Of a stretch of 51,342 bases of DNA, positions 1 through 51,342 are shown one piece after another. The translations under genes were made by a program, and so were the position numbers. Below the pieces are notes generated by a model. The model was given only the letters and a program-made list of their open reading frames with translations. It made no database searches and was not told where the DNA came from. The stretch is from a virus (Duplodnaviria > Caudoviricetes). Within the stretch, counting starts at the first letter, position 1. Each line of letters starts with the position of its first letter. The DNA lies in IMG/VR virus record IMGVR_UViG_3300037467_000112, positions 1 to 51,342 of that record. One strand, written 5' to 3'.

Positions 1-127
1 ACAATAAAAGAAGGGAAGACAAAATGTCTTAACGTCTTGAATAGTAAACAGCGAGACTAACTAACTGTGAAATGGTAACAGTTAAAGTTGTGCAACGCTA
101 ACTGCGTTAGCTACCAAGAGAGTAACC
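1..127. repeat. Terminal direct repeat, copy 1 (identical to 51216-51342); probably a circular-assembly overlap
   Basis: Exact 127-nt identity with the last 127 nt; 127 is a common assembler k-mer length. Confidence 0.95.
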
Positions 128-144
128 CTCTTCGTAATACTCTT

Positions 145-173
145 ATTATAACATATTTTATAGTAAAAGTAAA
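145..173 (-). promoter_or_regulatory. Putative sigma70-type promoter reading across the junction into the structural arm
   Basis: Minus strand reads TTTACT-17 nt-TATAAT with a TG extension (ATGTTATAAT); points toward the first structural gene (51117) on the circular map. Confidence 0.6.
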
Positions 174-583
174 TAGCTGGAAGACAGTAATTGAGAATAA
201 ACACATAAAAATATGGTATAGCCGCCAAAGAGTCCAGCAGTGAGGCCAGTCGCAAGACCCAGCCCGTTATTCCAGAATTTCTTGGAGAAAATTTTTGATG
301 ATAGAGTGCAATGATACGGCACCCCCGGCCCCCCGGCGTGGCCACTCATGTTTGTTCCGGGTGCGTTCTCCTCGCGTTCACGGTGCGTTCGCCTGTAACA
401 GTTCCAGTCACAGTTCCAGTTCGCTGTCCTTCAGTATTCCCACAGCAACAAACATCCGCTTTACTGTATTCATCAGCATCATCCAGCTTGATCGCCCCCA
501 CATATATGGTAGTCTCAACTTGTCACCAAAGAAGTGTGACAGCAACGGCCCAGTCTAATGGGCTTGAACAGGAGCAGACAGAC

Positions 584-811
584 ATGAGCGTCACCGTCGA
601 ACAAGCAATCGAATACGTCCGCAAGATGATGAGCACTGATGACTACGGTACCGTCGGTGAATTGGTGCTGACTCACAACAGCAACCGTGAGTACGAGAAA
701 GGTAAGCTGATGCGTACGATCAGGATGGAGGACGATACCGGAGTGCTCGGATATTGGGATGTGTGGATGGAAGACCTCGGCGATGGTCCGTTCGTCTACG
801 GTGAATGGTAA
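584..811 (+). CDS. Early hypothetical protein (75 aa)
   Basis: ATG 584 follows AGGAG; the ORF-track start at 311 has no RBS. Confidence 0.7.
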   Translation: MSVTVEQAIEYVRKMMSTDDYGTVGELVLTHNSNREYEKGKLMRTIRMEDDTGVLGYWDVWMEDLGDGPFVYGEW

Positions 812-842
812 AGCCTCTCACGTCTGACTGAAAGGAAGACAC

Positions 843-923
843 ATGGTCACGCTCTTTGAACAGTACGCCAAGATCAAGCAACTTCAACGCAAGGTGAAGC
901 AACAGCAACAGAAGAACAAGTGA
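843..923 (+). CDS. Small early peptide (26 aa, MVTLFEQYAKIKQLQRKVKQQQQKNK)
   Basis: AAAGGAAG RBS upstream; stop lies just before hammerhead 1. Confidence 0.45.
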   Translation: MVTLFEQYAKIKQLQRKVKQQQQKNK

Positions 924-933
924 ACATCGCTAG

Positions 934-996
934 TGTCGAAAGCGTCGTGAGACGCTCTGATGTAGCTGGCTACTGCATCACTGATGAGACAAGCCA
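934..996 (+). ncRNA. Type II hammerhead ribozyme 1 (predicted cleavage after C957)
   Basis: Stem II TGTC/GACA; GAAA 938-941; stem III GCGTC-GTGA-GACGC; UC 956-957; stem I TGATGTAG/CTGCATCA; CTGATGA 981-987; loop TGGCT can pair with 3' AGCCA 992-996. Confidence 0.92.
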
Positions 997-1014
997 AGAT
1001 GAGGCCTGACTACC

Positions 1015-1293
1015 ATGACTAAGAAACAACTGATGCGTGAAGTGAAGCGCATCCTGTCTCAGATCAACTACCGCATCGACCACAGTGTTGAGTACAATGA
1101 ATACAGGTGCGCTCCGACTGATGTGAACAAGGAGACTGCTGAACGCATTGCGTACTACACGGATGATCTTCGAGACTGTGCCGCAACTGCGATCATGAAC
1201 AGGAAGCACGAAAGCAATGTGAACAATGATCCGACCGAGTACGGCCGCCTTCATGAACTGTATCTGGAGTTGAACAACTACTTCCAAGACTAA
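1015..1293 (+). CDS. Early hypothetical protein (92 aa) flanked by the two hammerheads
   Basis: ORF with GAGG RBS; no recognised family. Confidence 0.75.
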   Translation: MTKKQLMREVKRILSQINYRIDHSVEYNEYRCAPTDVNKETAERIAYYTDDLRDCAATAIMNRKHESNVNNDPTEYGRLHELYLELNNYFQD

Positions 1294-1303
1294 ACATCAC
1301 TAG

Positions 1304-1387
1304 TGTCGAAAGCGTTGGAGTGTGGTTGTTACTGCACTCCTTCGCTCGGTTGACTGTTGGCTACAGCAACCCTGATGAGACAAGCCA
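1304..1387 (+). ncRNA. Type II hammerhead ribozyme 2 (predicted cleavage after C1347)
   Basis: Stem II TGTC/GACA; GAAA 1308-1311; extended stem III GCG..GGAGTGTGGT/ACTGCACTCC..CGC; UC 1346-1347; stem I GGTTG(A)CTGT/ACAG-CAACC; CTGATGA 1372-1378; loop TGGCT with 3' AGCCA. Confidence 0.92.
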
Positions 1388-1401
1388 CATGGAGACTAGT
1401 C

Positions 1402-1653
1402 ATGGCTAAGGGTTATTCTGTCTGCACCAATGAAGATGGGTACATGGTGGAGCACATTCACTGTGAGTACATCAGCGAGTCAGCAACGGCAGCGCATCAC
1501 ATCAGCGCTCGCCTGAACAAGCCGGTATTCGTGATCAACCTGTACTGTGGAAAGTGGGTTGTTGACGTATTCATCCGCGGTGAATGCGTACTGTCGGGTA
1601 AGTTCCACAGTCAAGAGGACGCTATGTACTGGTGTCTGTCGGTCACTCACTGA
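1402..1653 (+). CDS. Early hypothetical protein (83 aa)
   Basis: ATG 1402 follows GGAG; the ORF-track start at 1357 lies inside hammerhead 2. Confidence 0.7.
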   Translation: MAKGYSVCTNEDGYMVEHIHCEYISESATAAHHISARLNKPVFVINLYCGKWVVDVFIRGECVLSGKFHSQEDAMYWCLSVTH

Positions 1654-1740
1654 ACATCGTTAGAACACAGCACAGTAACGCAAGCATCTTGTATCTCTAT
1701 CATCAATCGAGCCCACATGGCGCAGCAAAGGAATACAGCA

Positions 1741-2010
1741 ATGCACGATAATCAATTCATGATCCTGGTGAAGTACAGGCGAGACATTACTCGTCCGGGT
1801 AAGGCGAGCAAAAGGTTTCGAGTTATACGGACAGGTCTACTCAAGGACAAAGCAATCGACATTATTTGTCAGCATGTGTATCGGTCTGCTGATTACGGTA
1901 TTCTTCCGTCTGACTGGCCTGTCCGTGACTGGAGAGTAGTGTTGGATATTGGTAGAACGTACAAGACAGTGTGGTCTTGGACGCATGGTGACTGGCCTGA
2001 ACAGGACTAA
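1741..2010 (+). CDS. Early hypothetical protein
   Basis: ORF; ATG 1741 follows AAGGA (1717 is an alternative start). Confidence 0.6.
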   Translation: MHDNQFMILVKYRRDITRPGKASKRFRVIRTGLLKDKAIDIICQHVYRSADYGILPSDWPVRDWRVVLDIGRTYKTVWSWTHGDWPEQD

Positions 2011-2027
2011 TCGAAGGAGAGACAACC

Positions 2028-2180
2028 ATGCTTAAGTTGAATGATCCCACAGTAATCTTGCTTGGTCTTTGGGTGCTTGGTTTTGGCGGTGCTTACGTCA
2101 AGACAACCTTGGACAAGCTGCAACAAGCCAAAGACGATGCAGCCCGTTACCGTACAGCGTACAAATTGGTTCGTCGTTAA
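2028..2180 (+). CDS. Small membrane-anchored protein (50 aa)
   Basis: AAGGAG RBS; hydrophobic VILLGLWVLGFGGAYV followed by a helical tail; not in the ORF track. Confidence 0.65.
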   Translation: MLKLNDPTVILLGLWVLGFGGAYVKTTLDKLQQAKDDAARYRTAYKLVRR

Positions 2181-2233
2181 ACCGTGCTTGCACTCAAGCA
2201 CACTAGCAACTCAAGTCGAAAGAACTGAGACTA

Positions 2234-2446
2234 ATGCAAATGAACCTGATCTTTGACAGCAAAGCCTGTCCGTCCGTGGTTGTTGACTACTACGATATAC
2301 CCGAATGGCTTAACTTGGGCTATCGTACATGGAATGTATTCGTCTGTACCGGATACGACAACTTACCTTGGATCGGTACACTTGAGCGCATTCAACATGA
2401 GACAGGATGCTTGACGCTTCTGTCTTTGCTCTATGGGGAGAAGTAA
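2234..2446 (+). CDS. Early hypothetical protein (70 aa)
   Basis: ORF tightly packed with its neighbours. Confidence 0.55.
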   Translation: MQMNLIFDSKACPSVVVDYYDIPEWLNLGYRTWNVFVCTGYDNLPWIGTLERIQHETGCLTLLSLLYGEK

Positions 2447-2448
2447 TC

Positions 2449-2574
2449 ATGTTTGGATTTGGCAACATCACCTATGACGACACAGTTGATCCTGACTTCG
2501 ACGACTTCACGGACATGAGTGAAGAAGATTTGTTGTTGTTTAAGGAACTCGAAGCTGAACTAGAGGAGAAGTAA
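2449..2574 (+). CDS. Very acidic small protein (41 aa)
   Basis: GGAG RBS; MFGFGNITYDDTVDPDFDDFTDMSEEDLLLFKELEAELEEK. Confidence 0.6.
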   Translation: MFGFGNITYDDTVDPDFDDFTDMSEEDLLLFKELEAELEEK

Positions 2575-2576
2575 TC

Positions 2577-2831
2577 ATGTCTAAGGACTGGAAATACCGA
2601 GTGCTCTATGTAGTACCGGCCGAGTACAACTGCCGTATTCACATACATGAGCGAAGGTTTCATGACTGGTATAAGTGTTTTGATTACGCATTTGACATAC
2701 TGAACTTCGGTAAAGCGTCAGTATGTATTCAGGAACGTGTGTCCCGTGGTCATTGGTGGAATAGATTCGCCAGTAAACCGGACAGTCATGGTGACGGTTG
2801 GGTGCATCCCGATACTGATGTAATACAGTAA
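2577..2831 (+). CDS. Early hypothetical protein (84 aa)
   Basis: GAGGAG RBS and ORF. Confidence 0.7.
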   Translation: MSKDWKYRVLYVVPAEYNCRIHIHERRFHDWYKCFDYAFDILNFGKASVCIQERVSRGHWWNRFASKPDSHGDGWVHPDTDVIQ

Positions 2832-2835
2832 CACG

Positions 2836-2877
2836 CTAGTTGAGGGGTAGTACAGATACAGTATTGCCCCTCACTAG
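2836..2877 (+). terminator. Long hairpin after the first early gene block (terminator or processing site)
   Basis: CTAGTTGAGGGGTAGTAC-AGATACA-GTATTGCCCCTCACTAG; no clear U-tract. Confidence 0.45.
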
Positions 2878-3009
2878 TCTGCCTTGCATCTCTATCATCA
2901 TTCACACGGCACGGGGCGGAGCACGGTAAGGTGTTGAAAAGGCACAGCTATTTGACTCCTGTGCTGCCTGCACACACGCGCGCGCGTTCCGATTCCCGCG
3001 CAATCAGGG

Positions 3010-3145
3010 TTTATCGTTATTCGATAAAGGTTTATCGTTAAACAATATCAAGTAACACCGTTGTTACACAAGGCACCCCTGATTTATCGTTTTTCGATAA
3101 GGGTTCGTCGTTTGTCGATAAAAGTCGATCACGCTTTCGTGATAA
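3010..3145. repeat. Array of TTATCG-N5-CGATAA palindromes (operator- or iteron-like)
   Basis: Copies at 3010-3028, 3084-3100 and 3104-3122 (imperfect), a half-site at 3031-3037, plus GTAACA-CCGT-TGTTAC and ATCACG-CTTT-CGTGAT. Confidence 0.7.
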
Positions 3146-3261
3146 CAAGCCTGTATCTTTCCTCGGCGGGGTATGAGCATATGGTCGGTGTCGGCGGCGG
3201 AAACGTCCCGGCCGCGCCGCGAGGGTCCTCCGGCGTGACTTCACATACCGGGAGGCGTGTC

Positions 3262-3720
3262 ATGGCCGCGAGGCTTGGCAAGCGCGAACGGGCGGCTCGC
3301 AAAGCGCTTCTCGATGAACGTCGGGCGTGCGTTGCGGCGAACCTGAACGCGCCTCAACCGGAACCGCAACGGGTTGCCGTCCGCACTAAGTCGGGCGCAC
3401 TCACGGTCATTCGTGATCGGTCGGGTTCCAGTCAATCAACCGAGCGTCTCGGCTCCTGCTACGGGTTGTTCAGCGATCCGCGCGGGAACGTGATTAACGG
3501 CCGCACTGTGAACGGCAAGATTGTGCGTGGTAAGGTTGTCAGAAATGACGGCCCGTCCAAGCCGATGCGGTTCCTGTGCGTCGATGCGGACGGCAATTCG
3601 TGGGGCGGTTTCGACCGTCTCAAGGATGCGACGGACGCCTGTACGCGACTGTCCGCCCGGCTCAAGCGGCCTATTCGGCTGCAAGAGAACCCTCTTGCCC
3701 TCGCTCGGGTGAAAGGGTAA
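3262..3720 (+). CDS. Highly basic protein (152 aa) with an N-terminal Arg-rich motif
   Basis: GGAGG RBS before ATG 3262; MAARLGKRERAARKALLDERR; stop codon abuts structured RNA 1. Confidence 0.75.
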   Translation: MAARLGKRERAARKALLDERRACVAANLNAPQPEPQRVAVRTKSGALTVIRDRSGSSQSTERLGSCYGLFSDPRGNVINGRTVNGKIVRGKVVRNDGPSKPMRFLCVDADGNSWGGFDRLKDATDACTRLSARLKRPIRLQENPLALARVKG

Positions 3721-4255
3721 GCTACCTCACAACTGGCGCGGGGCCTCACGGTCCTACGCCGCGTGTACGCTGCACGATAACTAAGCGAAGGTTAAAGGTG
3801 GAACCGCGCGTGCGGTGGATGCCCCTAGCTCACTTGTGGGTGTGGGGCTGAAGCTGCGCCGGACCGTGCTGCAATGCACCCTCTAGGTTCGTAAACCCTT
3901 GCCAGTGTTGCGCTTTCGCGCACATTGGTTCTCGCGCTCGCGCATGGTAAGGCTGCACACGCCAGACGTGTCTCCTTGCTTGCCCGTTCGTGTCTGCTGC
4001 TCCGCCGGTCTAGCACCCGGCGTGGGATGCACACAGGCACGCTCGGAACCGGTCGCACGTACGCTAAGGGACCCGCCCTCGAACTCTGGAGGGCGGGGAT
4101 ACCACGATGAATGCCGCACATGGCGCTATGCTGTGTGCGGTGTTTGTCGTTAGCGTTAGGGGCACACGTTGCGAGCGTGGCTTGGAACGGCTGTAAAGGC
4201 TTAACCATTGTTTCGTGTGCTCCTTACCCTAGCGACAAGCGTTGTGCTAGGTGGC
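3721..4255 (+). ncRNA. Large structured non-coding/leader RNA 1 (about 535 nt), family unknown
   Basis: The two ends pair (GCTACCT-CACAAC 3721-3733 with GTTGTG-CT-AGGTGGC 4241-4255) and enclose many G-U-containing helices; no credible ORF inside. Confidence 0.7.
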
Positions 4256-4275
4256 CAAACAAAGGAGACACCTAC

Positions 4276-4947
4276 ATGGCCGAACTGCCCAAACTGCTTC
4301 CCGCGAAGCAGATCTCCGCTCGCAACGTCACCATCGGCGAGACGGCGGACAACCTCGACAAGCTGGTGTTCGAGAACGCCATCCAATGCGCCCTCCACGC
4401 GCAGCAGCACGGTGACGTCACGCTCATGGCAGACCTGCTGAACCGCGTCGGCGGCACGAAGCGCAAGGGCTTCAACGCCGAAGGCTTCATCAAGTGGGTG
4501 TACGATCACACGCCCATCCGCGACGGCGGCAAGGACGCGAAGGGCAACCGGGCGCTCGGCTTGCTCAAGCGCGGCATCAACAAGGACTTCCCCGCGAAGC
4601 CGGACGAGCCGGACTCGGTGGCGTGGAAGATCGAGGAAATGATCGCCACGCCGTACTGGAACTACGCCCCGTCGGCGCCTCCGCGTGCTCGCCCGCCCCT
4701 GTCGGCGGACGAAATCCAGAACAACATCATCAAGTTCGCGGACCGGATCGAGACGGCCGTGAAGCAGGACAAGTTCGAGGGCGGCGAAGGCGAGGCGCGC
4801 AAGGCCATGACGGCGCTCGCCGCCGCGGTCAAGGCGTACAACGAGGCGATGCGGACCATGCAGGAAGCGCCCGACACGGCGCACCTGCGCGATCCCCGCC
4901 GCGAGGAGCACCCGTCCTTCAACCAACCCGTCGCCGGCACCGCCTGA
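4276..4947 (+). CDS. Phage protein (223 aa), probably highly expressed
   Basis: AAAGGAG RBS; very strong G/C-ending codon bias; HAQQHGDVTL segment reminiscent of conserved podovirus early proteins. Confidence 0.85.
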   Translation: MAELPKLLPAKQISARNVTIGETADNLDKLVFENAIQCALHAQQHGDVTLMADLLNRVGGTKRKGFNAEGFIKWVYDHTPIRDGGKDAKGNRALGLLKRGINKDFPAKPDEPDSVAWKIEEMIATPYWNYAPSAPPRARPPLSADEIQNNIIKFADRIETAVKQDKFEGGEGEARKAMTALAAAVKAYNEAMRTMQEAPDTAHLRDPRREEHPSFNQPVAGTA

Positions 4948-5057: not shown

Positions 5058-5303
5058 ATGTCTCAATTCAATGTGGCCCCGAGCTTGACGCCGGGGCTGT
5101 ATGTCGTTGTTCGCAACAATGGCGAGACGACGTACATGTCGCTGTTCGGGTTCGGCACTGGCCGCAGGGCCAAGTGGGTGACGAACAAGGAAAGCGCGTC
5201 ACACTTCCGTGAGGCTGAGGCCGTGCGGTGGTGCGACAGCCTGAACCTTTCGTTAAGGCGTGGGCAGGGGGATAGGCATCTCTATCATCAGCCCAATGCC
5301 TGA
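5058..5303 (+). CDS. Hypothetical protein (81 aa)
   Basis: ATG follows AAAGGG. Confidence 0.65.
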   Translation: MSQFNVAPSLTPGLYVVVRNNGETTYMSLFGFGTGRRAKWVTNKESASHFREAEAVRWCDSLNLSLRRGQGDRHLYHQPNA

Positions 5304-6089: not shown

Positions 6090-6461
6090 ATGTCGAAAGA
6101 CAAAGCTACTTATACCCCGCGTGTCGGGGACATCGTGACTGTGCGTGCAACGATACAGCTCGACGGGCTGACCCCTATGGGGAACGTCCGAGGTGGTATT
6201 GACCGATCCAATGGTAAGGGCGGGGTGTACGCCAACGAACAGGTGTACTTCGATCCGTCGGCCATCGTGTCCGTCGAAGAGCGGCCGATCCAAGTCGGTG
6301 ACGTGTTCGCGCATGGTACTAGCCGGTGTACGATTGTCTCCGTCTTCGAGGCTGAGGGCAGGACTTATACAGCGTACATCTCAAGCTGTGTACTCTATCC
6401 CGTTGTCTGCCATGCTGAGAATTGGCCCAAATGGGGCTACAAACGGGAGCAACGCCCTTGA
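6090..6461 (+). CDS. Hypothetical protein, 'PIxVGD' paralog 1
   Basis: Two VGD modules (PRVGDIV, PIQVGDVF) that look like KOW/SH3-type beta repeats. Confidence 0.75.
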   Translation: MSKDKATYTPRVGDIVTVRATIQLDGLTPMGNVRGGIDRSNGKGGVYANEQVYFDPSAIVSVEERPIQVGDVFAHGTSRCTIVSVFEAEGRTYTAYISSCVLYPVVCHAENWPKWGYKREQRP

Positions 6462-8382: not shown

Positions 8383-8802
8383 GTGAAACCACGCCGTCTG
8401 GCGTGTGTTGAAAGGGACAATCCAATAAATACCGCTGAGTTCCCGTACTGCTGCGGGATTCAAATCCTTGGTGGCTTCGGCCACACCAAGACTGCTGGCT
8501 TCAACGCTGGTGTTGACATACCGCTGCCCGAGATCGAAGCTTGGCTGGAACGCCAGATCGAGCACTATCGGGCCTTGGCTTATGCCGGTATGCTGGTCCT
8601 CAGCCTGAATCACCAACAGAAGGCTGAGATCGGGGCGACCATTGAAGCTGCTGGCTTCAAGATGGTGTCGAGCTGTCACCACGCCTACCACAAGACGGAC
8701 ATCTACCTGTACACGCTGTCCCTTGAGGAAGCCCTTGAGGATGAAGAACTCTTGGGTAAGAAGAACCAGCTCTATAACTACGGGAGGCTGAGCTACTGGT
8801 AA
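8383..8802 (+). CDS. Hypothetical protein preceding the ligase cluster
   Basis: 139-aa ORF with a CCG motif; start uncertain. Confidence 0.65.
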   Translation: MKPRRLACVERDNPINTAEFPYCCGIQILGGFGHTKTAGFNAGVDIPLPEIEAWLERQIEHYRALAYAGMLVLSLNHQQKAEIGATIEAAGFKMVSSCHHAYHKTDIYLYTLSLEEALEDEELLGKKNQLYNYGRLSYW

Positions 8803-9152
8803 ACCACATCATCGTCTATGGCACCCTGAAGCAGGGGCACAAGGCGCACCACTTTATGCGGGGCTGTGATTTTGTCGAGGACGTTGCTGTCTTCGGTGAG
8901 ATGTTCAGTCTCGGCGGCTTTCCGGGCGTCAAGCTTGGCACATCGTGCTGTGGCTGCTTCTTCCGTGGTGAACTCTACAAGCTGCCGGAGGGTGACCGGG
9001 GCATCTCTATCATAAGCACACTCGACGCCTATGAAGGGGTTCCCCACCTGTACACGCGTCAAACCATCGACTTCAACGGAGAGGACTGTTATATCTACGA
9101 ATACAACGGCCGGGACCCCGGGGGCGAACGCCTCGAAACCTGGGCCGCTTAA
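8796..9152 (+). CDS. Gamma-glutamylcyclotransferase (AIG2/GGACT-like); probable CTG start
   Basis: IIVYGTLKQG N-terminal motif, GELY and LDAYEG..Y.R; GGAGG lies 8 nt before CTG 8796. Confidence 0.85.
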   Translation: MVNHIIVYGTLKQGHKAHHFMRGCDFVEDVAVFGEMFSLGGFPGVKLGTSCCGCFFRGELYKLPEGDRGISIISTLDAYEGVPHLYTRQTIDFNGEDCYIYEYNGRDPGGERLETWAA

Positions 9153-10089: not shown

Positions 10090-10737
10090 ATGAAAGTTTT
10101 CATCCAAGGTCCCGGTGCTGGGGCATACATCATGATGTTCCTGCGGGCTGGCTTCAAGGGGGCAGCCAGTGTGGACGATGCGGACATTGTTTGCTTCACC
10201 GGTGGTGAGGACGTTCACCCGCATTACTACAACGAGGACCCCCTTCGCTGCACGTACTTCAACCTGAAGCGAGACGAAGAGGACGTCAAGGTCTTCAACC
10301 GCGCCAAGGAACAGCAGAAGTTCATGGTCGGCATCTGTCGTGGCGGTCAGTTTCTGAACGTCATGGGCGGCGGCAAGCTGTGGCAAGACGTGGACGAACA
10401 TGGCCGGGAACACTGGCTGCTGGACATGCTGACCGGGGCCAAGATTTGGGTCACCAGCACGCACCATCAGCAGATGATCCCCGGCGACAAGGCTGACGTA
10501 TGGGCCACTGCGAACTGCTCCAACAACAAGTACGGCTACGGCAAGGAGTGGTCCCGCAAGAGCCCTGAGGCTGATGCCTTTGACGTGGAGGTCTGCTGGT
10601 ATCCCCACATTCGTGCTCTGTGCTTCCAGCCTCACCCGGAAATGTACGGCGCTTCGGAGGGGTGTATCAACTACTTCTTCCAGTGCCTGAAGAACGCCAT
10701 GAAGATCGTTGAGGAGCAAGACGAATGTGTGGCCTAG
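10090..10737 (+). CDS. Class I glutamine amidotransferase / peptidase C26-like
   Basis: FTGGEDV, GICRGGQ nucleophile elbow, STHHQ, QPHPE. Confidence 0.9.
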   Translation: MKVFIQGPGAGAYIMMFLRAGFKGAASVDDADIVCFTGGEDVHPHYYNEDPLRCTYFNLKRDEEDVKVFNRAKEQQKFMVGICRGGQFLNVMGGGKLWQDVDEHGREHWLLDMLTGAKIWVTSTHHQQMIPGDKADVWATANCSNNKYGYGKEWSRKSPEADAFDVEVCWYPHIRALCFQPHPEMYGASEGCINYFFQCLKNAMKIVEEQDECVA

Positions 10738-12041
10738 TCGGCGTAGCCGGGTCAATCGACAATCAGGACATTGGAGCATTCAATGATCTGCTGTTGGCCA
10801 ACGTGGTTCGTGGAAAACACAGCACTGGTGTTGCTGGTGTGGATCGCGGCAATCGTTCCCACCTGATCAAGTGTGTCGGTGGTCCGCTGGACCTTCAGGA
10901 ACAGAAAGGCTACGACAACGTAGTTCGACAGGACAAGAAGGTTCTGATCGGTCACAATCGTCATGCCACCGTGGGCGGGGTGTCCAAGGTCAACGCCCAC
11001 CCGTTTGACTTCGACAATCTTGTTGGGGCTCACAACGGCACGGTCGACAAGTTCAGGCTCAAGGATCACAACGAGTTCCCCACGGACTCGGAAGCCCTGT
11101 ACAACAACATGAACCTGTTTGGCCCCGAAGAGACGATCAAACTGATCAGTGGGGCGTGGGCCTTGACGTGGTACGACAAGGGTTACAAGACCATCAACCT
11201 GATCCGCAACAAAGAGCGGCCCCTCTTCTACACGCTTTGTGACGAAGGGAAGTCGCTCTGGTGGGCCAGTGAAGCAGGTATGCTGCGCTGGTGCCTTGAG
11301 CGGAACCGCATCGAGGTCAGCAAAGTGTACTTCCTTGAGGAAGACATGATGCTGACTTGGGAGGTTCCAGCATACGGCAAACCCTTTTGCGAACCCGAGG
11401 CGACAAAGGTTGAAGGGTATAAGTACTTTCCACCAGTGGTGGATAGGCGGGCATCGTCTGCCGTAAACTGGAACCAACGTGGAGGTAGCCAACCCGGCGG
11501 CCCCCCTTTGTCCCTTCCCAAGGGGGCCTTGTCGACCCCGACGAACTCCCCTGGGACGATGAGATCGACGACATCTTCGGGACAGGATGGTCAGCAATCG
11601 AAGACGTCCTCCAACGTCGTGCCGCTCAACAGCTCGAACTTGCTCTCGAACAAGAAGTCGAGCAACGAAAGCGAGAACGAGAAGGACGGAAACCTGTCGT
11701 CTGGTGTGATAAGTACCATCGAAAGGGGAAGACAGGGAAAACCTTCGGAAGCCGAAGCTGGAAACGATGGTCAGCAAAGCACTGGCCGGGCCTTGACCTT
11801 GAGTGACCTGAAACTTCAGGAAGCTGGCCGAGGAACCAAGATCTATAAAGACAAGCACAACGGTCGTATCATTACGAAGAAGGTGTTTGCTAACCTGACC
11901 ATAAAAGGGTGTAGCTGGTGCTGCCGCTCGCCTGATTACGGCGAAGACTTCTATGTGTTCGGAACTCCGTCTGACAATGAGTTCCTTTGCGAGGACTGTT
12001 CCGTCGACCCGGACGTCCAAGCTTGTGCCCACATCCACTAG
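10725..12041 (+). CDS. Class II (Ntn) glutamine amidotransferase with a Ser-rich linker and C-terminal Zn-finger
   Basis: MCGLVG N-terminus, RG.HSTG, GHNRHAT, NAHPF, HNGT, TDSE; C-terminal CSWC..CEDC. Confidence 0.9.
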   Translation: MCGLVGVAGSIDNQDIGAFNDLLLANVVRGKHSTGVAGVDRGNRSHLIKCVGGPLDLQEQKGYDNVVRQDKKVLIGHNRHATVGGVSKVNAHPFDFDNLVGAHNGTVDKFRLKDHNEFPTDSEALYNNMNLFGPEETIKLISGAWALTWYDKGYKTINLIRNKERPLFYTLCDEGKSLWWASEAGMLRWCLERNRIEVSKVYFLEEDMMLTWEVPAYGKPFCEPEATKVEGYKYFPPVVDRRASSAVNWNQRGGSQPGGPPLSLPKGALSTPTNSPGTMRSTTSSGQDGQQSKTSSNVVPLNSSNLLSNKKSSNESENEKDGNLSSGVISTIERGRQGKPSEAEAGNDGQQSTGRALTLSDLKLQEAGRGTKIYKDKHNGRIITKKVFANLTIKGCSWCCRSPDYGEDFYVFGTPSDNEFLCEDCSVDPDVQACAHIH

Positions 12042-12074
12042 GTCTGACGACCTGATCATCACGAAGGAGAGTAA

Positions 12075-12902
12075 GTGGAAATTCTGATTGGTGCTGACCC
12101 CGAAGTGTTCGTGCGTAACCCGAACGACCAGAAGTTCGTCAACGCTCACAACATGATTCCGGGTGACAAGAAGACCCCGTTCGGGGTGAAGGACGGTGCT
12201 GTTCAGGTGGACGGCATGGCCCTTGAGTTCAACATCAACCCGGCCAAGTCGGCTGACGAGTTTGTCGGGAACATCAAGTCGGTGTACGAGCAACTCAAGG
12301 CGATGGTGCCCGGCTACAACGTCGTGGCCGAGCCGGTGGCCGTGTTCGACAAGGGTTACTTCGACCAACAGCCGACCGAATCCAAGGAGCTGGGGTGCAA
12401 CCCCGACTTCAATGCTTGGACCGGCAAGGTCAACAACCCCCCGAAGGGTGGCGACAAGCCGATGCGTACGGCGTCGGGTCACATCCACATCGGGTGGACG
12501 AAGGACGAAGATCCTAACGATCCGGTCCACTTCGCTGACTGCTGTGCGCTGGTGAAACAGCTCGACTACTTCCTCGGTCTGCACAGCATCCTGTGGGACA
12601 GGGACAACCGCCGTCGGTCCATGTACGGCAAGGCTGGTGCGTTCAGGCCCAAGCCGTACGGTGTCGAGTACCGGGTCATGTCAAACGTTTGGCTGACGAA
12701 CGAAGAGCTGATGCGGTGGGTGTTCGACCAAACCCACAAGGCTGTCGACACCCTGCTCAATGGGGAGAACTTCGCGGAAACCCACAACAGTCAGGCTGCG
12801 GGTATCATCAACAGCAACGAAGCTGGGTGGGAAGCGTACTACCGGTTCCCCGGTGTCGGAACTCTTCCCAAGCACCTGAGGAACCTGCAGAAGGCCGCTT
12901 AA
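12075..12902 (+). CDS. phiEco32-like COOH-NH2 ligase type 2
   Basis: IGADPEVF, DGMALEFN, GCNPDFNAW, SGHIHIG, YGKAGAFRPKPYGVEYR. Confidence 0.9.
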   Translation: MEILIGADPEVFVRNPNDQKFVNAHNMIPGDKKTPFGVKDGAVQVDGMALEFNINPAKSADEFVGNIKSVYEQLKAMVPGYNVVAEPVAVFDKGYFDQQPTESKELGCNPDFNAWTGKVNNPPKGGDKPMRTASGHIHIGWTKDEDPNDPVHFADCCALVKQLDYFLGLHSILWDRDNRRRSMYGKAGAFRPKPYGVEYRVMSNVWLTNEELMRWVFDQTHKAVDTLLNGENFAETHNSQAAGIINSNEAGWEAYYRFPGVGTLPKHLRNLQKAA

Positions 12903-12906
12903 CACA

Positions 12907-13527
12907 ATGCGATACGAGAACGTTGAAGAGGCCGAGTCCCGGCTGCGGTCCACTGTCGTCATGTACGACGGTAAGCCGGTCTGGGTTGATCATGTGGTCC
13001 GGGGAACCGGTCCGTCTGGGCTGTCCGTTCAGATCTATTCCCTGCCCCGGCTGAGGGAAAAGCGGGAGGTTGACCTGTTCGACCCCAAGCTGAACATGCG
13101 GAACATTCCGTTGGGGTATGTGAACTACGGTCATGACGCCCTGTACCTGACCCGGATGCCGGCCCGTCGTTTCAAGCAGGGTTTGAACTCCGAGAACGTT
13201 CACATCCCCCGGGACAAGATGTTCAACGAGCACGGGGACCGGATCAATTGGGGTACGATCTACTCCAGCCAGGGGTTTGCCGATTCGATGTCGGGTAAAT
13301 TTCCCAGCTTCGAAGAGGCTGCGAAGAAGCTGGCCGACGAATCTGAGTTCAAGTCTGTCGCCTTCAGTCGGGTGTTCGCGCTCTCCCGAAACCCTCTCGG
13401 CCTGAACATCTTGCTTTACAAGGGCAACGAGGTTGCTTGGTCTGAAAGCCACGCCTTCAAGCTGCCCGGCAACAAGAGTTTCCTGCAACAAGTGATCGAA
13501 CAACACGGAGTCAAACTCGCGTCATGA
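12907..13527 (+). CDS. Conserved-looking hypothetical protein of the ligase cluster
   Basis: 206-aa ORF between two ligases; LGYVN and R.P.R..KQGL motifs. Confidence 0.8.
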   Translation: MRYENVEEAESRLRSTVVMYDGKPVWVDHVVRGTGPSGLSVQIYSLPRLREKREVDLFDPKLNMRNIPLGYVNYGHDALYLTRMPARRFKQGLNSENVHIPRDKMFNEHGDRINWGTIYSSQGFADSMSGKFPSFEEAAKKLADESEFKSVAFSRVFALSRNPLGLNILLYKGNEVAWSESHAFKLPGNKSFLQQVIEQHGVKLAS

Positions 13528-14612
13528 GCAACAAGGCAAAGGGCTGGAACCTTCCTGTCACGGAGCTGATGGGTCAGCGTGGTGTCAAGGAAGGTGAGGT
13601 TGGCATCGAGATCGAAGCCGAAGGATACCTGCTTCCTGCCGCTGTCAAGGGTACGTATTGGACTGTACACGACGACGGCAGCCTTCGCCTTCCGCCTGCC
13701 AAGGTTGTCGGTGCGTTCCCTGTGGCCGGTAGTGCGTACGAGTACGTGCTCAGGCAGCCTGTGAAGCGGGACAAGGTTGAGGCGGCTCTGGACAATCTCA
13801 CTAAGGCCCTGACCGAGAGCAAGGCCGAAGTGGTCATGTCCAACCGCTGCAGCGTCCACATTCACCTGAACTGTCAGGGTATGTTGATGCGACAGGTGTA
13901 CAATCTTATCACTCTGTCGGGCATCTTCGAAAGCCTGTTGTCGGAATACTGTGGTGACGACCGGATCGGCAATCTGTTTTGTCTGCGACAAAGCGATGCT
14001 GAGTTCATGGTCAGAGCGCTGGCTGAATGTCTGACTACCAATCAGTACAATTGGTTTGTCAATGACAATCTGCGCTACGCGTTCCTGAACGTTACGTCTC
14101 TTCCGAAGTACAACTCGGTCGAGTTCCGTGGTCTGCGCGGTACTGTGGACAAGCCGACCATCGAGACTTGGGTTCGGATGCTGCTGTCCATGCAAGACGC
14201 AGCCAAGACGTACAGCAGCCCGGCTGAGATCATCCAAGAGTTCAGTGTCCGCGGTCCGGTGGCGTTCCTGATGAAGATCTTTCCGAAGGACTATCCGTGG
14301 TTCATGAACCGACAGAACTACGTTGATCGCATGTACGGCGGAATGCGCCTGATGCAGGATCTTGCCTTTGCCGTGGAGTGGGGTGAGGTCGTCAAGGCGG
14401 AGCCCGCCAAGGAATACAACGTCGTCGTCGAGCAGCAGGTGGTTGACGATTTAATGCCGGATTTTGATGAAGATGTTGATGATGGTCCCTTCCACTTCGA
14501 CATTGAAGCTGACCAACTTCTAGTGCAAGTTCAGCAAAACCCGATGCCGGGTTGGCGGCAAGTTCAAGTCCCGCCCGTGCTCCGTCGTGCAGTGGAAGAA
14601 GGAGACATTTAA
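13524..14612 (+). CDS. Putative amidoligase (amidoligase-2 family)
   Basis: GIEIE, DGSL, EYV, CSVHIHLN, RY..LN, VEFRG. Confidence 0.88.
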   Translation: MSNKAKGWNLPVTELMGQRGVKEGEVGIEIEAEGYLLPAAVKGTYWTVHDDGSLRLPPAKVVGAFPVAGSAYEYVLRQPVKRDKVEAALDNLTKALTESKAEVVMSNRCSVHIHLNCQGMLMRQVYNLITLSGIFESLLSEYCGDDRIGNLFCLRQSDAEFMVRALAECLTTNQYNWFVNDNLRYAFLNVTSLPKYNSVEFRGLRGTVDKPTIETWVRMLLSMQDAAKTYSSPAEIIQEFSVRGPVAFLMKIFPKDYPWFMNRQNYVDRMYGGMRLMQDLAFAVEWGEVVKAEPAKEYNVVVEQQVVDDLMPDFDEDVDDGPFHFDIEADQLLVQVQQNPMPGWRQVQVPPVLRRAVEEGDI

Positions 14613-33100: not shown

Positions 33101-35812
33101 CTGGTTATGATTAAGCTGGCTAAAGGTTTCGCTGTACATCTTCGACAGAGACGTGATGATCTTCTGTCGGGTGTTGGCCGACCGAGCAGCGACGTTGAAC
33201 AGGTGGTCATTCAGAAGCTGTCGGCTGCCCAGCACAAAGCGGCTGAGGAAGTTCTTGGAAGCCGTCGGGGTTTCCATCGTGAAGAAGTTGGTTTCAATCA
33301 TGTCACGATCAACAGTGACGTGCCACGTACCAGCCTCGTCTTGAACCGCATTGGTCACCACCGGAGCTTGAGTAGGCGCATCTTTGGGAGAAGGTACAGT
33401 TTCCAGCGGAAGATCGTTACCACCAACTAGCTCCTCAGTAGGAACAAATGTCTCTTTGCCATCATACTCGACCGGAGTAAAAGATCGTCCAGTTTTAGGG
33501 TCGATCTGAGCTTCGCCGGTGATCTTAACGGGATAGTCCGTATCCTTAGAGCGCCAGACAGCATCCCTACCGGCAGCAGTTCGCGCTTTCATATCTTTAG
33601 GGAACTGACTCGACTTGGCCTTCACCCCACCACGAGGACCGTGAGTGGTGTACGACAGCTTAGAGGTCTCTTCGACAACCTTGCTGGTGCCTTCGTGGAC
33701 TTCCATAGTGACCGGATGGTGAGTCAGCTTTTCAGCAGGCGTACCCGTGAAGTTGCTGATCACTTGACCGTTCTTGATGTCGTCAATCGGCCGCACTTCA
33801 CTCTTACCGAAGCGCAACACAACTCGACCATTGGGATACTCGGCCTTTAACTTCTTCCACAGGCTTTCAACCTGCTTGGCAGTCATGCCCTTGCCTTCGA
33901 GCTTGTGGGCAACCTTAACAGTCGGCACAAGCTTCTCAGTCTTGGTGACAGCAGGAACAAGGTCGTCGAGCTTCTTGGCAGCCGGGCTGGTTACACCGCG
34001 GCGCGACGTCTTGAGCCCTTCAGCAGCGTCCACCAACTCTTGACGGGGGCTGCCTGGAATGTGAATAACCTCGTGCTCACCAAAGCCAAAGCTGTGAGCC
34101 CAATTGCGGGCTTCCGCTTCCGACGTAAAGTCGCCGACAACAAACTTAAGGCGCTTGGTCGTGGAGCCGTCAGCCAGACGAACATCAGACTCAATGACGT
34201 CCTTGACTTCCCGCTTGATGATCGACTCAAAGCGTTCCTTGTTACCGAGGATAGCCGCCTTGATCTCTTCGTCGGTCAGACGACCAGACTGGCGGAGTCG
34301 ATTAAAGACCTCTGACACAGTTTTCTGGGCGTTCTCCAGACGGGTGGCAATGTCCACCGGAGCCGGAACCGTGCTGGCAGCAAGGTGGGGCTCAGGGTTC
34401 ACAGCAGTCGGCAGGGCATTGGCAACAGCCTCATCCATCGACACACCAGTCTTCTCAGCAGCCTTAGCAGCGCCTTCGGCCTCAATCTCCACGAAGGTCC
34501 GAGCAACCAGCTCACTGGCCTCCCTACGGGCACCAGCACGGGCCATCATGCCGGTCAGACTACCGACACCCTTGACCAGCTTCATGCCCTTTGCGACCTC
34601 AGCGGGGCCGACCCAGCCAAAGTTGTCCAGAGTGTCAAACAAGTTCTGGGCGGTGGCAGACGGAGTAGCGCCCAAGCGAGTCAGGATCTCCAGTTCTTGG
34701 GTTCGGCTTTCCAGGCCGAGGGTGGTAGCGTTCTGCGTGACGTTGGGGATTAGCTCCTCACGAACGTACTTGCTGAAGTCCTGAATGGGCATGTGCCACA
34801 GGCTTGCAGCTTCGTTCTCTTGACGCTGACCCGACGCAAGGAAGTCGTACCAGTGCTCAGCCACGTTGTCGGCTCGAACGTTCCCGGTGTTGCCACCAGA
34901 GTTCTTGAGCGGAATCATTCCCATCGCGAAGTCAAAGAGGTTCAGGTACCACGGGTGGTCGTCCACACGCAGCTTGGCCTTCTCGATCTCACGCTGAAGA
35001 ATTAGACGCTTGGCTTCAATGTCGGCAACAGTGTGCGTAGCGTCTCCGTACTGAAGGTTGTTCAGCAGGAGCTTGGCCTGTTGGTCGTCGCCAGCAGCCG
35101 CAAGGTTTTGAATGTTTTCGACAGCACGTTTCTCAGCAGCGTATTCGGCACGCTTCCGAATGTCTTCAGCCATAACAGCCTGAGCGACAGCAGCCGAACC
35201 CTGCAGAACAGTCGGGTCCATTTCCAAGCCAGTGCGTTGCTTCAGGATGTTGACCTGACTGTTGAAGGTGCGCTGCTGGTCTTCCTTGGCGATCTCAATA
35301 CGGTGGCCATAGTCGGTCTCACTGTTGATCGCCTGCTTGTAGACTTCATTAGCGCTGGACAGCGTGTCAATTACGTCTTGACCGTCTGCGACGTGTTTGT
35401 CGATATTGGCCAAAGACAGAACAGTAGCCTGACGATCCTTGGCTTTGTCGGGAATAGCTTCAGGCGTCACTTCGGGCTGGGGGATGGTTCCAAACACACC
35501 TCCTTGAGCAGTGTCACCCGGAATGGACGCACTGAACAGGTTAGCCTGATCTTCATGGATAGCCTGAGCCGCAGCATCAGCTTCAGCCTGATTGTCGTAG
35601 ATACCCATGTGCTTTCCAGTCCTTCTATAGGTCTCAATAGCCTCTTGGTCGGACATGATACGTCCATCGTCAGAGACAGTAGGAATGATGGTCTCACCCC
35701 TATCAGTTCCGATGGTGATGGACCTTACAGTACTAATTGTGCCGTCTGCATTGTGGACAATGGGACGATGTTGTAGATCAATATTACCGGGTTCAAGCAA
35801 AGCTCCGGCCAT
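30185..35812 (-). CDS. Large internal virion (ejection) protein, 1875 aa
   Basis: Size and position after the tail genes; Ala/Gly-rich, largely helical character. Confidence 0.75.
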
Positions 35813-51215: not shown

Positions 51216-51342
51216 ACAATAAAAGAAGGGAAGACAAAATGTCTTAACGTCTTGAATAGTAAACAGCGAGACTAACTAACTGTGAAATGGTAACAGTTAA
51301 AGTTGTGCAACGCTAACTGCGTTAGCTACCAAGAGAGTAACC
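51216..51342. repeat. Terminal direct repeat, copy 2
   Basis: Identical to 1-127. Confidence 0.95.

Follow-up and report, generated by a model that had tools for sequence, protein, structure and literature searches.

Two pseudoknotted type II hammerhead ribozymes were found near the left end of a complete phage genome, one on each side of a single small gene. The arrangement probably serves the self-processing of an early polycistronic RNA into single-gene mRNAs with hairpin-capped 5′-OH and 2′,3′-cyclic phosphate ends. Judged from their sequences, the two elements (HH1 and HH2) are genuine, active-type hammerheads on the coding strand. In what follows, "the window" denotes the whole stretch of DNA that was analysed, 51,342 nucleotides in length. 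The ribozymes and their parts were assigned as follows.

934–996, + strand: HH1, type II hammerhead, recognised by the motif pattern, RF02276, covariance model R1 and folding
934–937 (UGUC) and 988–991 (GACA), + strand: stem II of HH1
938–940, + strand: GAA of HH1 (G12, A13, A14)
941–946 and 951–956, + strand: stem III of HH1, with loop GUGA
957/958, + strand: predicted cleavage site of HH1, between C957 (2′,3′-cyclic phosphate) and U958 (5′-OH), placed by the H17 position in the family alignment
958–965 and 973–980, + strand: stem I of HH1
967–971 (UGGCU) and 992–996 (AGCCA), + strand: pseudoknot of HH1
981–987, + strand: core CUGAUGA of HH1
1304–1387, + strand: HH2, type II hammerhead with a long stem III, recognised by the motif pattern, R1 and folding
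1304–1307 and 1379–1382, + strand: stem II of HH2
1308–1310, + strand: GAA of HH2
1311–1314 and 1343–1346, + strand: stem III of HH2, extended by a 10-bp hairpin at 1317–1340
1347/1348, + strand: predicted cleavage site of HH2, between C1347 and G1348, placed by the family alignment
1348–1352 with 1367–1371 and 1354–1357 with 1363–1366, + strand: stem I of HH2
1358–1362 and 1383–1387, + strand: pseudoknot of HH2
1372–1378, + strand: core CUGAUGA of HH2

The conserved core was complete in both copies. It comprised CUGAUGA (C3–A9), G12, A13 and A14, the A15.1–U16.1 pair (A941–U956 in HH1, A1311–U1346 in HH2) and an H17 other than G (C957 and C1347). Stems I and III were capped by loops, the 4-bp stem II was open, and standard pairs adjoined the core. 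Moreover, loop I (UGGCU) paired with AGCCA 3′ of stem II, forming a 5-bp pseudoknot in both HH1 and HH2. For such a pseudoknot, Perreault et al. required four or more base pairs joining loop I to the stretch that directly follows stem II on its 3′ side, and they reported type II hammerheads with exactly this interaction to be common in bacteria (PMC3088659). Between the two copies, stem I showed compensatory differences (UGAUG/CAUCA versus GGUUG/CAACC), and the variable stem columns were 28% alike. The motif pattern that joins both ribozyme halves matched twice in the window, against 0.00 matches expected from 100 shuffles. In ViennaRNA, the hammerhead fold was the minimum free energy (MFE) structure of HH2 (−35.2 kcal/mol) and lay 0.5 kcal/mol above the MFE of HH1, with the pseudoknot not counted. 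The copies are 370 nt apart, start to start, with one ORF between them, and share the strand of all flanking ORFs. The two hammerheads of the original prediction are thus where it had put them, with core, helices, pseudoknot and covariance model in agreement.

Rfam, applied at its gathering score to the whole window, gave no match, and a search of 850–1450 (601 bases) with E up to 10 returned nothing relevant, only a chance snoRNA match. HH1 matched RF02276 with 26.3 bits (E 5e-4), below the cut-off of 37 and only when 76 bases were given; in that alignment, the UGG...AGCC letters of the pseudoknot were also present in the Rfam consensus. HH2 has an extra 28 nt in stem III and drew no hammerhead match from Rfam. 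Both copies share with RF02276 the circular permutation (stem II open, stems I and III capped), the core, and the pseudoknot between loop I and the 3′ tail. They differ from it in scoring below the gathering cut-off and in having G-C as the 15.2–16.2 pair, which is usually C-G; the stem III extension is a further difference in HH2. Four of 13 clear relatives (L006, L027, L040, L052 and nine other loci) reached the Rfam Hammerhead_II cut-off. This links the family to RF02276 and, at the same time, indicates that the Rfam model is insensitive for the present subfamily. In a survey run at the cut-off, the Rfam type II model would therefore miss most of its members.

Relatives were collected by a pattern that spans loop I, the core and the pseudoknot tail and that matched 108 viral contigs. 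A motif script then picked out 172 sites resembling hammerheads, in these contigs and the window together, and covariance model R1 was built from alignment A2, composed of 125 distinct, well-formed phage hammerheads. Searched over all 51,342 bases on both strands with filters off, R1 scored HH1 at 68.1 bits and HH2 at 53.1 bits, partly by construction, as both are in its seed; the next match had 12 bits. We considered 8406–8428, 6091–6111 and 2214–2242 as collapsed hammerheads, but their R1 scores (12.0, 9.7 and 9.3 bits, E 0.31–1.6) were at chance level, and an ORF starts at 6091. A site on the minus strand, 35150–35228, was rejected as a chance match. It has a 2-bp stem II and a CUGAAGA core, lies inside a 1875-aa ORF and drew no R1 signal; it is still counted among the 172 motif hits. 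BLAST of HH1 against cultured phages returned short, chance-level pieces only.

Over the 108 viral contigs, R1 found 179 further copies, giving 181 with the window. The loci had been picked by a pattern derived from the ribozyme of this window, so the family statistics describe one subfamily only. In the alignment made by the model from the best 150 copies (124 distinct), 91.4% of cells were paired, against 31.8–36.1% when the partners were slid; the alignment method favours the three R1 helices, whereas the pseudoknot is absent from the model. Changes on both sides were seen in 18 of 21 pairs, pseudoknot included, among the 124 distinct members. For the pseudoknot itself, four of five pairs had changed on both sides and 93.1% of cells paired. 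Among 500 shuffles, none reached the observed values for four of five measures, and the remaining one, further pair types, was reached by three.

The placement of the ribozymes was also consistent. All R1 matches within any one locus were on the same strand. Copy numbers, which are lower bounds because the loci are partial, were one in 69 loci, two in 24, three in 10 and five in 2, with one locus each for six, seven and nine copies. The 72 neighbour pairs were spaced 266–6235 nt apart (median 488 nt), and the 370 nt of the window pair is typical of the family. Exactly one ORF of at least 30 aa filled the interval in 55 of these pairs; 13 intervals had two ORFs, two had three, and one each had four and eleven. 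Overall, the median coding fraction was 0.92. Among the 172 motif hits, an upstream ORF (at least 40 aa) ended no more than 30 nt from the hammerhead in 151. For 125 of the hits, the distance from stem II to the start of a downstream ORF was at most 30 nt, and for 149 it was at most 60 nt. A same-strand ORF of at least 40 aa spanned 39 of the 172 hits, so the family may not be intergenic throughout. In five whole records, the copies were confined to a single block of 2–4 kb.

The original prediction had proposed comparing phages for different genes between homologous hammerheads, and such differences were found: the 160 ORFs directly downstream of hammerheads fell into 91 clusters. The commonest downstream gene encodes a MoxR-like AAA ATPase (phrog_1297, PF07728) and accounts for 25 of the 160 ORFs (L007, 12443–13432 on the − strand, and 24 other loci), while most other clusters have no assigned function. 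The longest arrays with one small ORF per interval were seen in L094 (10000–13416, − strand, at least nine hammerheads) and L061 (at least seven); L080 has at least six, and L044 and L072 at least five each.

The phage record is a complete virus of 51,342 bp with direct terminal repeats, an exact 127 bp at positions 1–127 and 51216–51342, and no tRNA genes were found in it. It encodes a T7-type primase-helicase, a family A DNA polymerase, a ribonucleotide reductase, a T7-type portal and a terminase. By polymerase, the closest cultured phages are marine Pelagibacter and Roseobacter podophages (34–40% identity), with Pelagibacter phage HTVC115P as the best match by both bit score and identity (40%). 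Genes run in the + direction up to ~27 kb, and the hammerhead pair lies 0.9–1.4 kb from the left end, within a row of small + strand ORFs. None of the eight small early + strand ORFs tested had a Pfam or PHROG family, and BLAST of 500–3000 gave no match. The genes around the pair, and the RNA between the two predicted cuts, are the following.

584–811, + strand: upstream small ORF, 75 aa, in the same gene string, with no family match
843–923, + strand: mini-ORF, 26 aa, with its stop codon 10 nt ahead of HH1
958–1347, + strand: unit of 390 nt released by double cleavage, with the HH1 stem I hairpin first and the HH2 stem III hairpin last
1015–1293, + strand: ORF of 92 aa (public gene call from 1033, 86 aa), with no Pfam or PHROG family
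1402–1653, + strand: next ORF, 83 aa, with GGAG at 1389–1392 directly past the HH2 pseudoknot

A sigma-70 promoter scan of the + strand over 1–4200 found none, so a single transcript spanning both ribozymes is an assumption of what follows. Hammerhead cleavage leaves a 2′,3′-cyclic phosphate and a 5′-OH. Cuts after C957 and C1347 would free exactly the 390-nt RNA that the original prediction had calculated, 958–1347, with one gene (ORF 1015–1293), a 5′-OH and a 2′,3′-cyclic phosphate. GAGG is present inside the unit at 1000–1003, ahead of the ORF. In the predicted fold, the stem I hairpin starts at nucleotide 1 and the stem III hairpin forms the 3′ end; 55% of the bases are paired. At −104.4 kcal/mol, the MFE of the unit is no different from the average over 100 dinucleotide shuffles (z = 0.00), and its first 45 nt formed no pair with its last 50 nt, whether the RNA was folded as linear or as circular. 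On these folding predictions, the unit looks like an mRNA and not like a viroid or a retrozyme.

The 92-aa protein has almost no relatives. A full HMMER search gave four distant hits, three of which are credible remote relatives with a common YNEYR...AYYTDD motif; the fourth (P0002) was repetitive and of low complexity and was dropped before alignment. A word-indexed protein search returned only the protein itself, and no relatives of this ORF or of ORF 4111–4947 were found in the viral contigs. The structure model of the protein was of low confidence (pLDDT 0.56, best feature score 0.75) and gave nothing usable.

We infer cleavage in vivo and its consequences for the mRNAs from the motifs, their conservation, their covariation and their placement. 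During the synthesis of a + strand polycistronic RNA, each ribozyme would cut it after its own C17. The gene ahead of HH1, the 92-aa gene and the genes that follow HH2 would thereby end up on separate messages. At its start, a message would have a 5′-OH directly where the stem I hairpin begins; the core would come next, then the pseudoknot tail and the ribosome-binding site. Its other end would consist of the stem III hairpin that belongs to the following ribozyme, with a 2′,3′-cyclic phosphate. Ends of this kind, defined, structured and of unusual chemistry, would make the stability and translation of adjacent genes independent of context, and the ribozymes may thus stabilise or insulate the messages. 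Single-gene self-processing fits the one gene per interval in 55 of 72 cases, the stop codon abutting the ribozyme, the start codon past the pseudoknot, and the covariation of stem II within ribozymes.

The early genes of phage T7 offer a parallel: their transcript is cut at RNase III sites between the genes, and each of the resulting single-gene mRNAs retains a hairpin at its 3′ end. RNase III is a host protein enzyme and leaves a 5′-phosphate and a 3′-OH at the T7 sites, whereas the RNA of the window would cut itself and leave a 5′-OH and a 2′,3′-cyclic phosphate. Engineered ribozyme insulators do a like job in synthetic operons. If the processing and insulation reading is true, the phage elements are natural counterparts of these insulators, and phages could express freshly acquired accessory genes regardless of context.

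Cleavage could also act in the opposite sense, as a timed shut-off that mainly destabilises or down-tunes the flanking early messages, possibly under regulation, rather than protecting them. Regulated cleavage of phage hammerheads was raised by Perreault et al. (PMC3088659), and the ribozymes are confined to the first block of small genes, the kind that a phage needs briefly. We nevertheless regard a shut-off role as quite improbable. Fully consensus cores with a stabilising pseudoknot are described as the hallmark of fast, constitutive cleavage (PMC3088659), hairpins at both new ends argue for protection, and neither copy has an aptamer-like extra domain, the long stem III of HH2 apart.

The original prediction took the 390-nt unit as a possible circular mRNA, i.e. 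a stable circular message for the 92-aa protein made by end-to-end ligation, with host RtcB or a chimeric hammerhead working in reverse as the ligase. A 5′-OH and a 2′,3′-cyclic phosphate are the substrate of RtcB-type ligases, and the chemistry fits, since a single RNA would carry both. The unit contains a complete gene with its ribosome-binding site, and the same stem II strands occur in HH1 and HH2, so the ends could rebuild a hammerhead. The chimeric hammerhead of copy 2 and copy 1 is therefore correct as it was drawn, but trivial: with identical stem II strands, any 3′ half fits any 5′ half. Perreault et al. also named the circular possibility (PMC3088659). The remaining evidence, however, makes it very unlikely that the unit is circularised. 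It has no structure that would join its ends (z = 0.00, with no end-to-end pairs), and after cleavage these would be held by the 3–4 bp of stem II only. The window itself is uninformative on the chimeric stem, its stem II strands being identical, but 27 neighbour pairs of the family differ in stem II. In the ten of them in which both own stems are fully Watson-Crick (fewer than ten independent events, as some arrays are related), the chimeric stem was never fully Watson-Crick; it was mismatched in six and wobble-only in four, which points to selection on the stem within each ribozyme. Moreover, 27 loci were covered for 2.5 kb or more past the outermost copy on each side; of these, 20 had a single copy and seven had two. 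No other ribozyme class was found at the Rfam gathering score in the 13 of these 20 single-copy loci that were scanned. With solo copies this common, the element appears to work without a partner.

The phage has no match to PF01139, PF09414 or PF13563, and thus no RtcB, Rnl-type ligase or 2H ligase of its own was found. According to Perreault et al., circular or spliced products were sought and not detected (data not shown; PMC3088659). In Desulfovibrio vulgaris, unligated ends of the same chemistry were recovered in vivo: linear RNAs with 2′,3′-cyclic phosphate and 5′-OH termini were captured by cyPhyRNA-seq (PMC8782182). Among the titles and abstracts that full-text searches of open-access papers and bioRxiv preprints brought up, none reports circular mRNAs from phage hammerheads. 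The circular-mRNA part of the original prediction was therefore not borne out by the fold, the stem II covariation, the solo copies, the ligase search or the 2011 work. There is in our estimate only a very slight chance that hammerhead-bounded single-gene units of phage early operons, 958–1347 included, are joined by host RtcB during infection into translatable circular mRNAs that outlast host RNA decay. If they were, RtcB-joined units would be the natural counterpart of engineered ribozyme-assisted circular RNA expression.

Retrozymes, viroids and engineered ribozyme-assisted circular RNAs (PMC6765202) rely on type III or type I hammerheads, repeated units, and strong self-complementarity or a designed end-joining stem. 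The unit of the window lacks these traits: its hammerheads are of type II, it is not made of repeated units, and its ends do not pair. The likeness lies in the ligatable termini that cleavage at both ends would leave on one RNA.

A further reading concerns gene exchange. The ribozyme sequence, being common to unrelated phages, could be a portable boundary for the exchange of early accessory genes, either as its main function or as a by-product, and the ribozyme would let an acquired gene be expressed independently of context. Such a module could coexist with transcript processing. This is close to the mobile cassette that the original prediction gave as an alternative. The flanked genes are diverse, as the 91 downstream clusters show, and the median identity of variable stems was 0.54 within a locus against 0.36 between loci, though common base composition could account for part of this likeness. 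The HH1 and HH2 spacers share blocks of 23 nt (96%) and 30 nt (90%), which include 11 nt upstream of stem II without a role in the fold. In addition, a third spacer keeps both flanks and has no ribozyme:

1654–1716, + strand: third spacer, with the flanks AACATCGTTAG (5′) and AGCCCACATGG (3′) as in the HH2 spacer, a repeated motif GTATCTCTATCATCA and no hammerhead

This spacer may represent a replaced or lost ribozyme. The flank pattern is, however, not rare when up to two mismatches are allowed (7 matches versus 3.6 expected). No duplication of a hammerhead-plus-gene unit within a locus was seen (0 paralogous pairs at E < 1e-5), and no transposase, integrase or target duplication adjoins the units. 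The three metagenome loci with distant relatives of the 92-aa protein had no hammerhead (best 9.2 bits), nor did nine contigs related through the glutamine amidotransferase, in the parts covered. HTVC115P, the nearest cultured relative tested, showed no ribozyme, only a 17.7-bit hit inside a CDS. Diverse genes, within-locus likeness and spacer blocks speak for the cassette idea, the lack of duplicated units within loci and of hammerheads beside the 92-aa relatives against it; on balance, we think a recombination module unlikely.

One motif of the third spacer recurs elsewhere. The 15-nt motif G[C/T]ATCTCTATCAT[C/A]A occurs on the + strand at 1691–1705, 2886–2900, 5276–5290 and 9001–9015, in spacers ahead of ORFs. 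With up to three mismatches, it was matched six times, against 0.94 expected. It has the appearance of a promoter specific to this phage, or of a regulatory site of another kind.

The layout of hammerheads flanking single phage genes has been known since 2011, and the present pair adds members to a known class. Perreault et al. described hammerheads around single prophage genes and proposed a role in mRNA processing; among the clustered prophage hammerheads, three tandem arrangements cleaved in vitro and one triple arrangement did so in E. coli (PMC3088659). As in the window, several same-strand ribozymes bracket genes or short blocks in the triple arrangement at ardA of A. tumefaciens and in C. 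scindens and A. caulinodans (PMC3088659). In these clusters, too, the identity of the flanked gene varies, and the same processing reading applies. The published clusters are prophages, whereas the window is a lytic-type podophage with terminal repeats, and its two copies, the minimum for such a layout, flank a gene that has almost no relatives. A comparable pair is that of D. vulgaris, with type II hammerheads at loc 2 and loc 3 that are ~310 nt apart and surrounded by phage-like genes. Cleavage of these two was demonstrated in vivo as well as in vitro (PMC8782182), while the window pair is known from sequence. A 2019 review (PMC6765202) presented the same processing idea as still unproven and called for more work, and published sources call the biological purpose of phage hammerheads unknown. 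The window offers a compact test case, a complete phage with two consensus ribozymes and one 92-aa gene between them.

Two other regions of the genome may be mentioned. A long non-coding stretch past the small-gene block has iteron-like direct repeats at 3008–3133 (TTTATCGTT.TTCGATAA.GG, three copies). Further along, 10090–14612 (+ strand) encodes a glutamine amidotransferase (phrog_7218), a class II amidotransferase-like gene, a COOH-NH2 ligase (phrog_3815) and an amidoligase (phrog_7469), a type of gene set that is associated with modification chemistry in phages.
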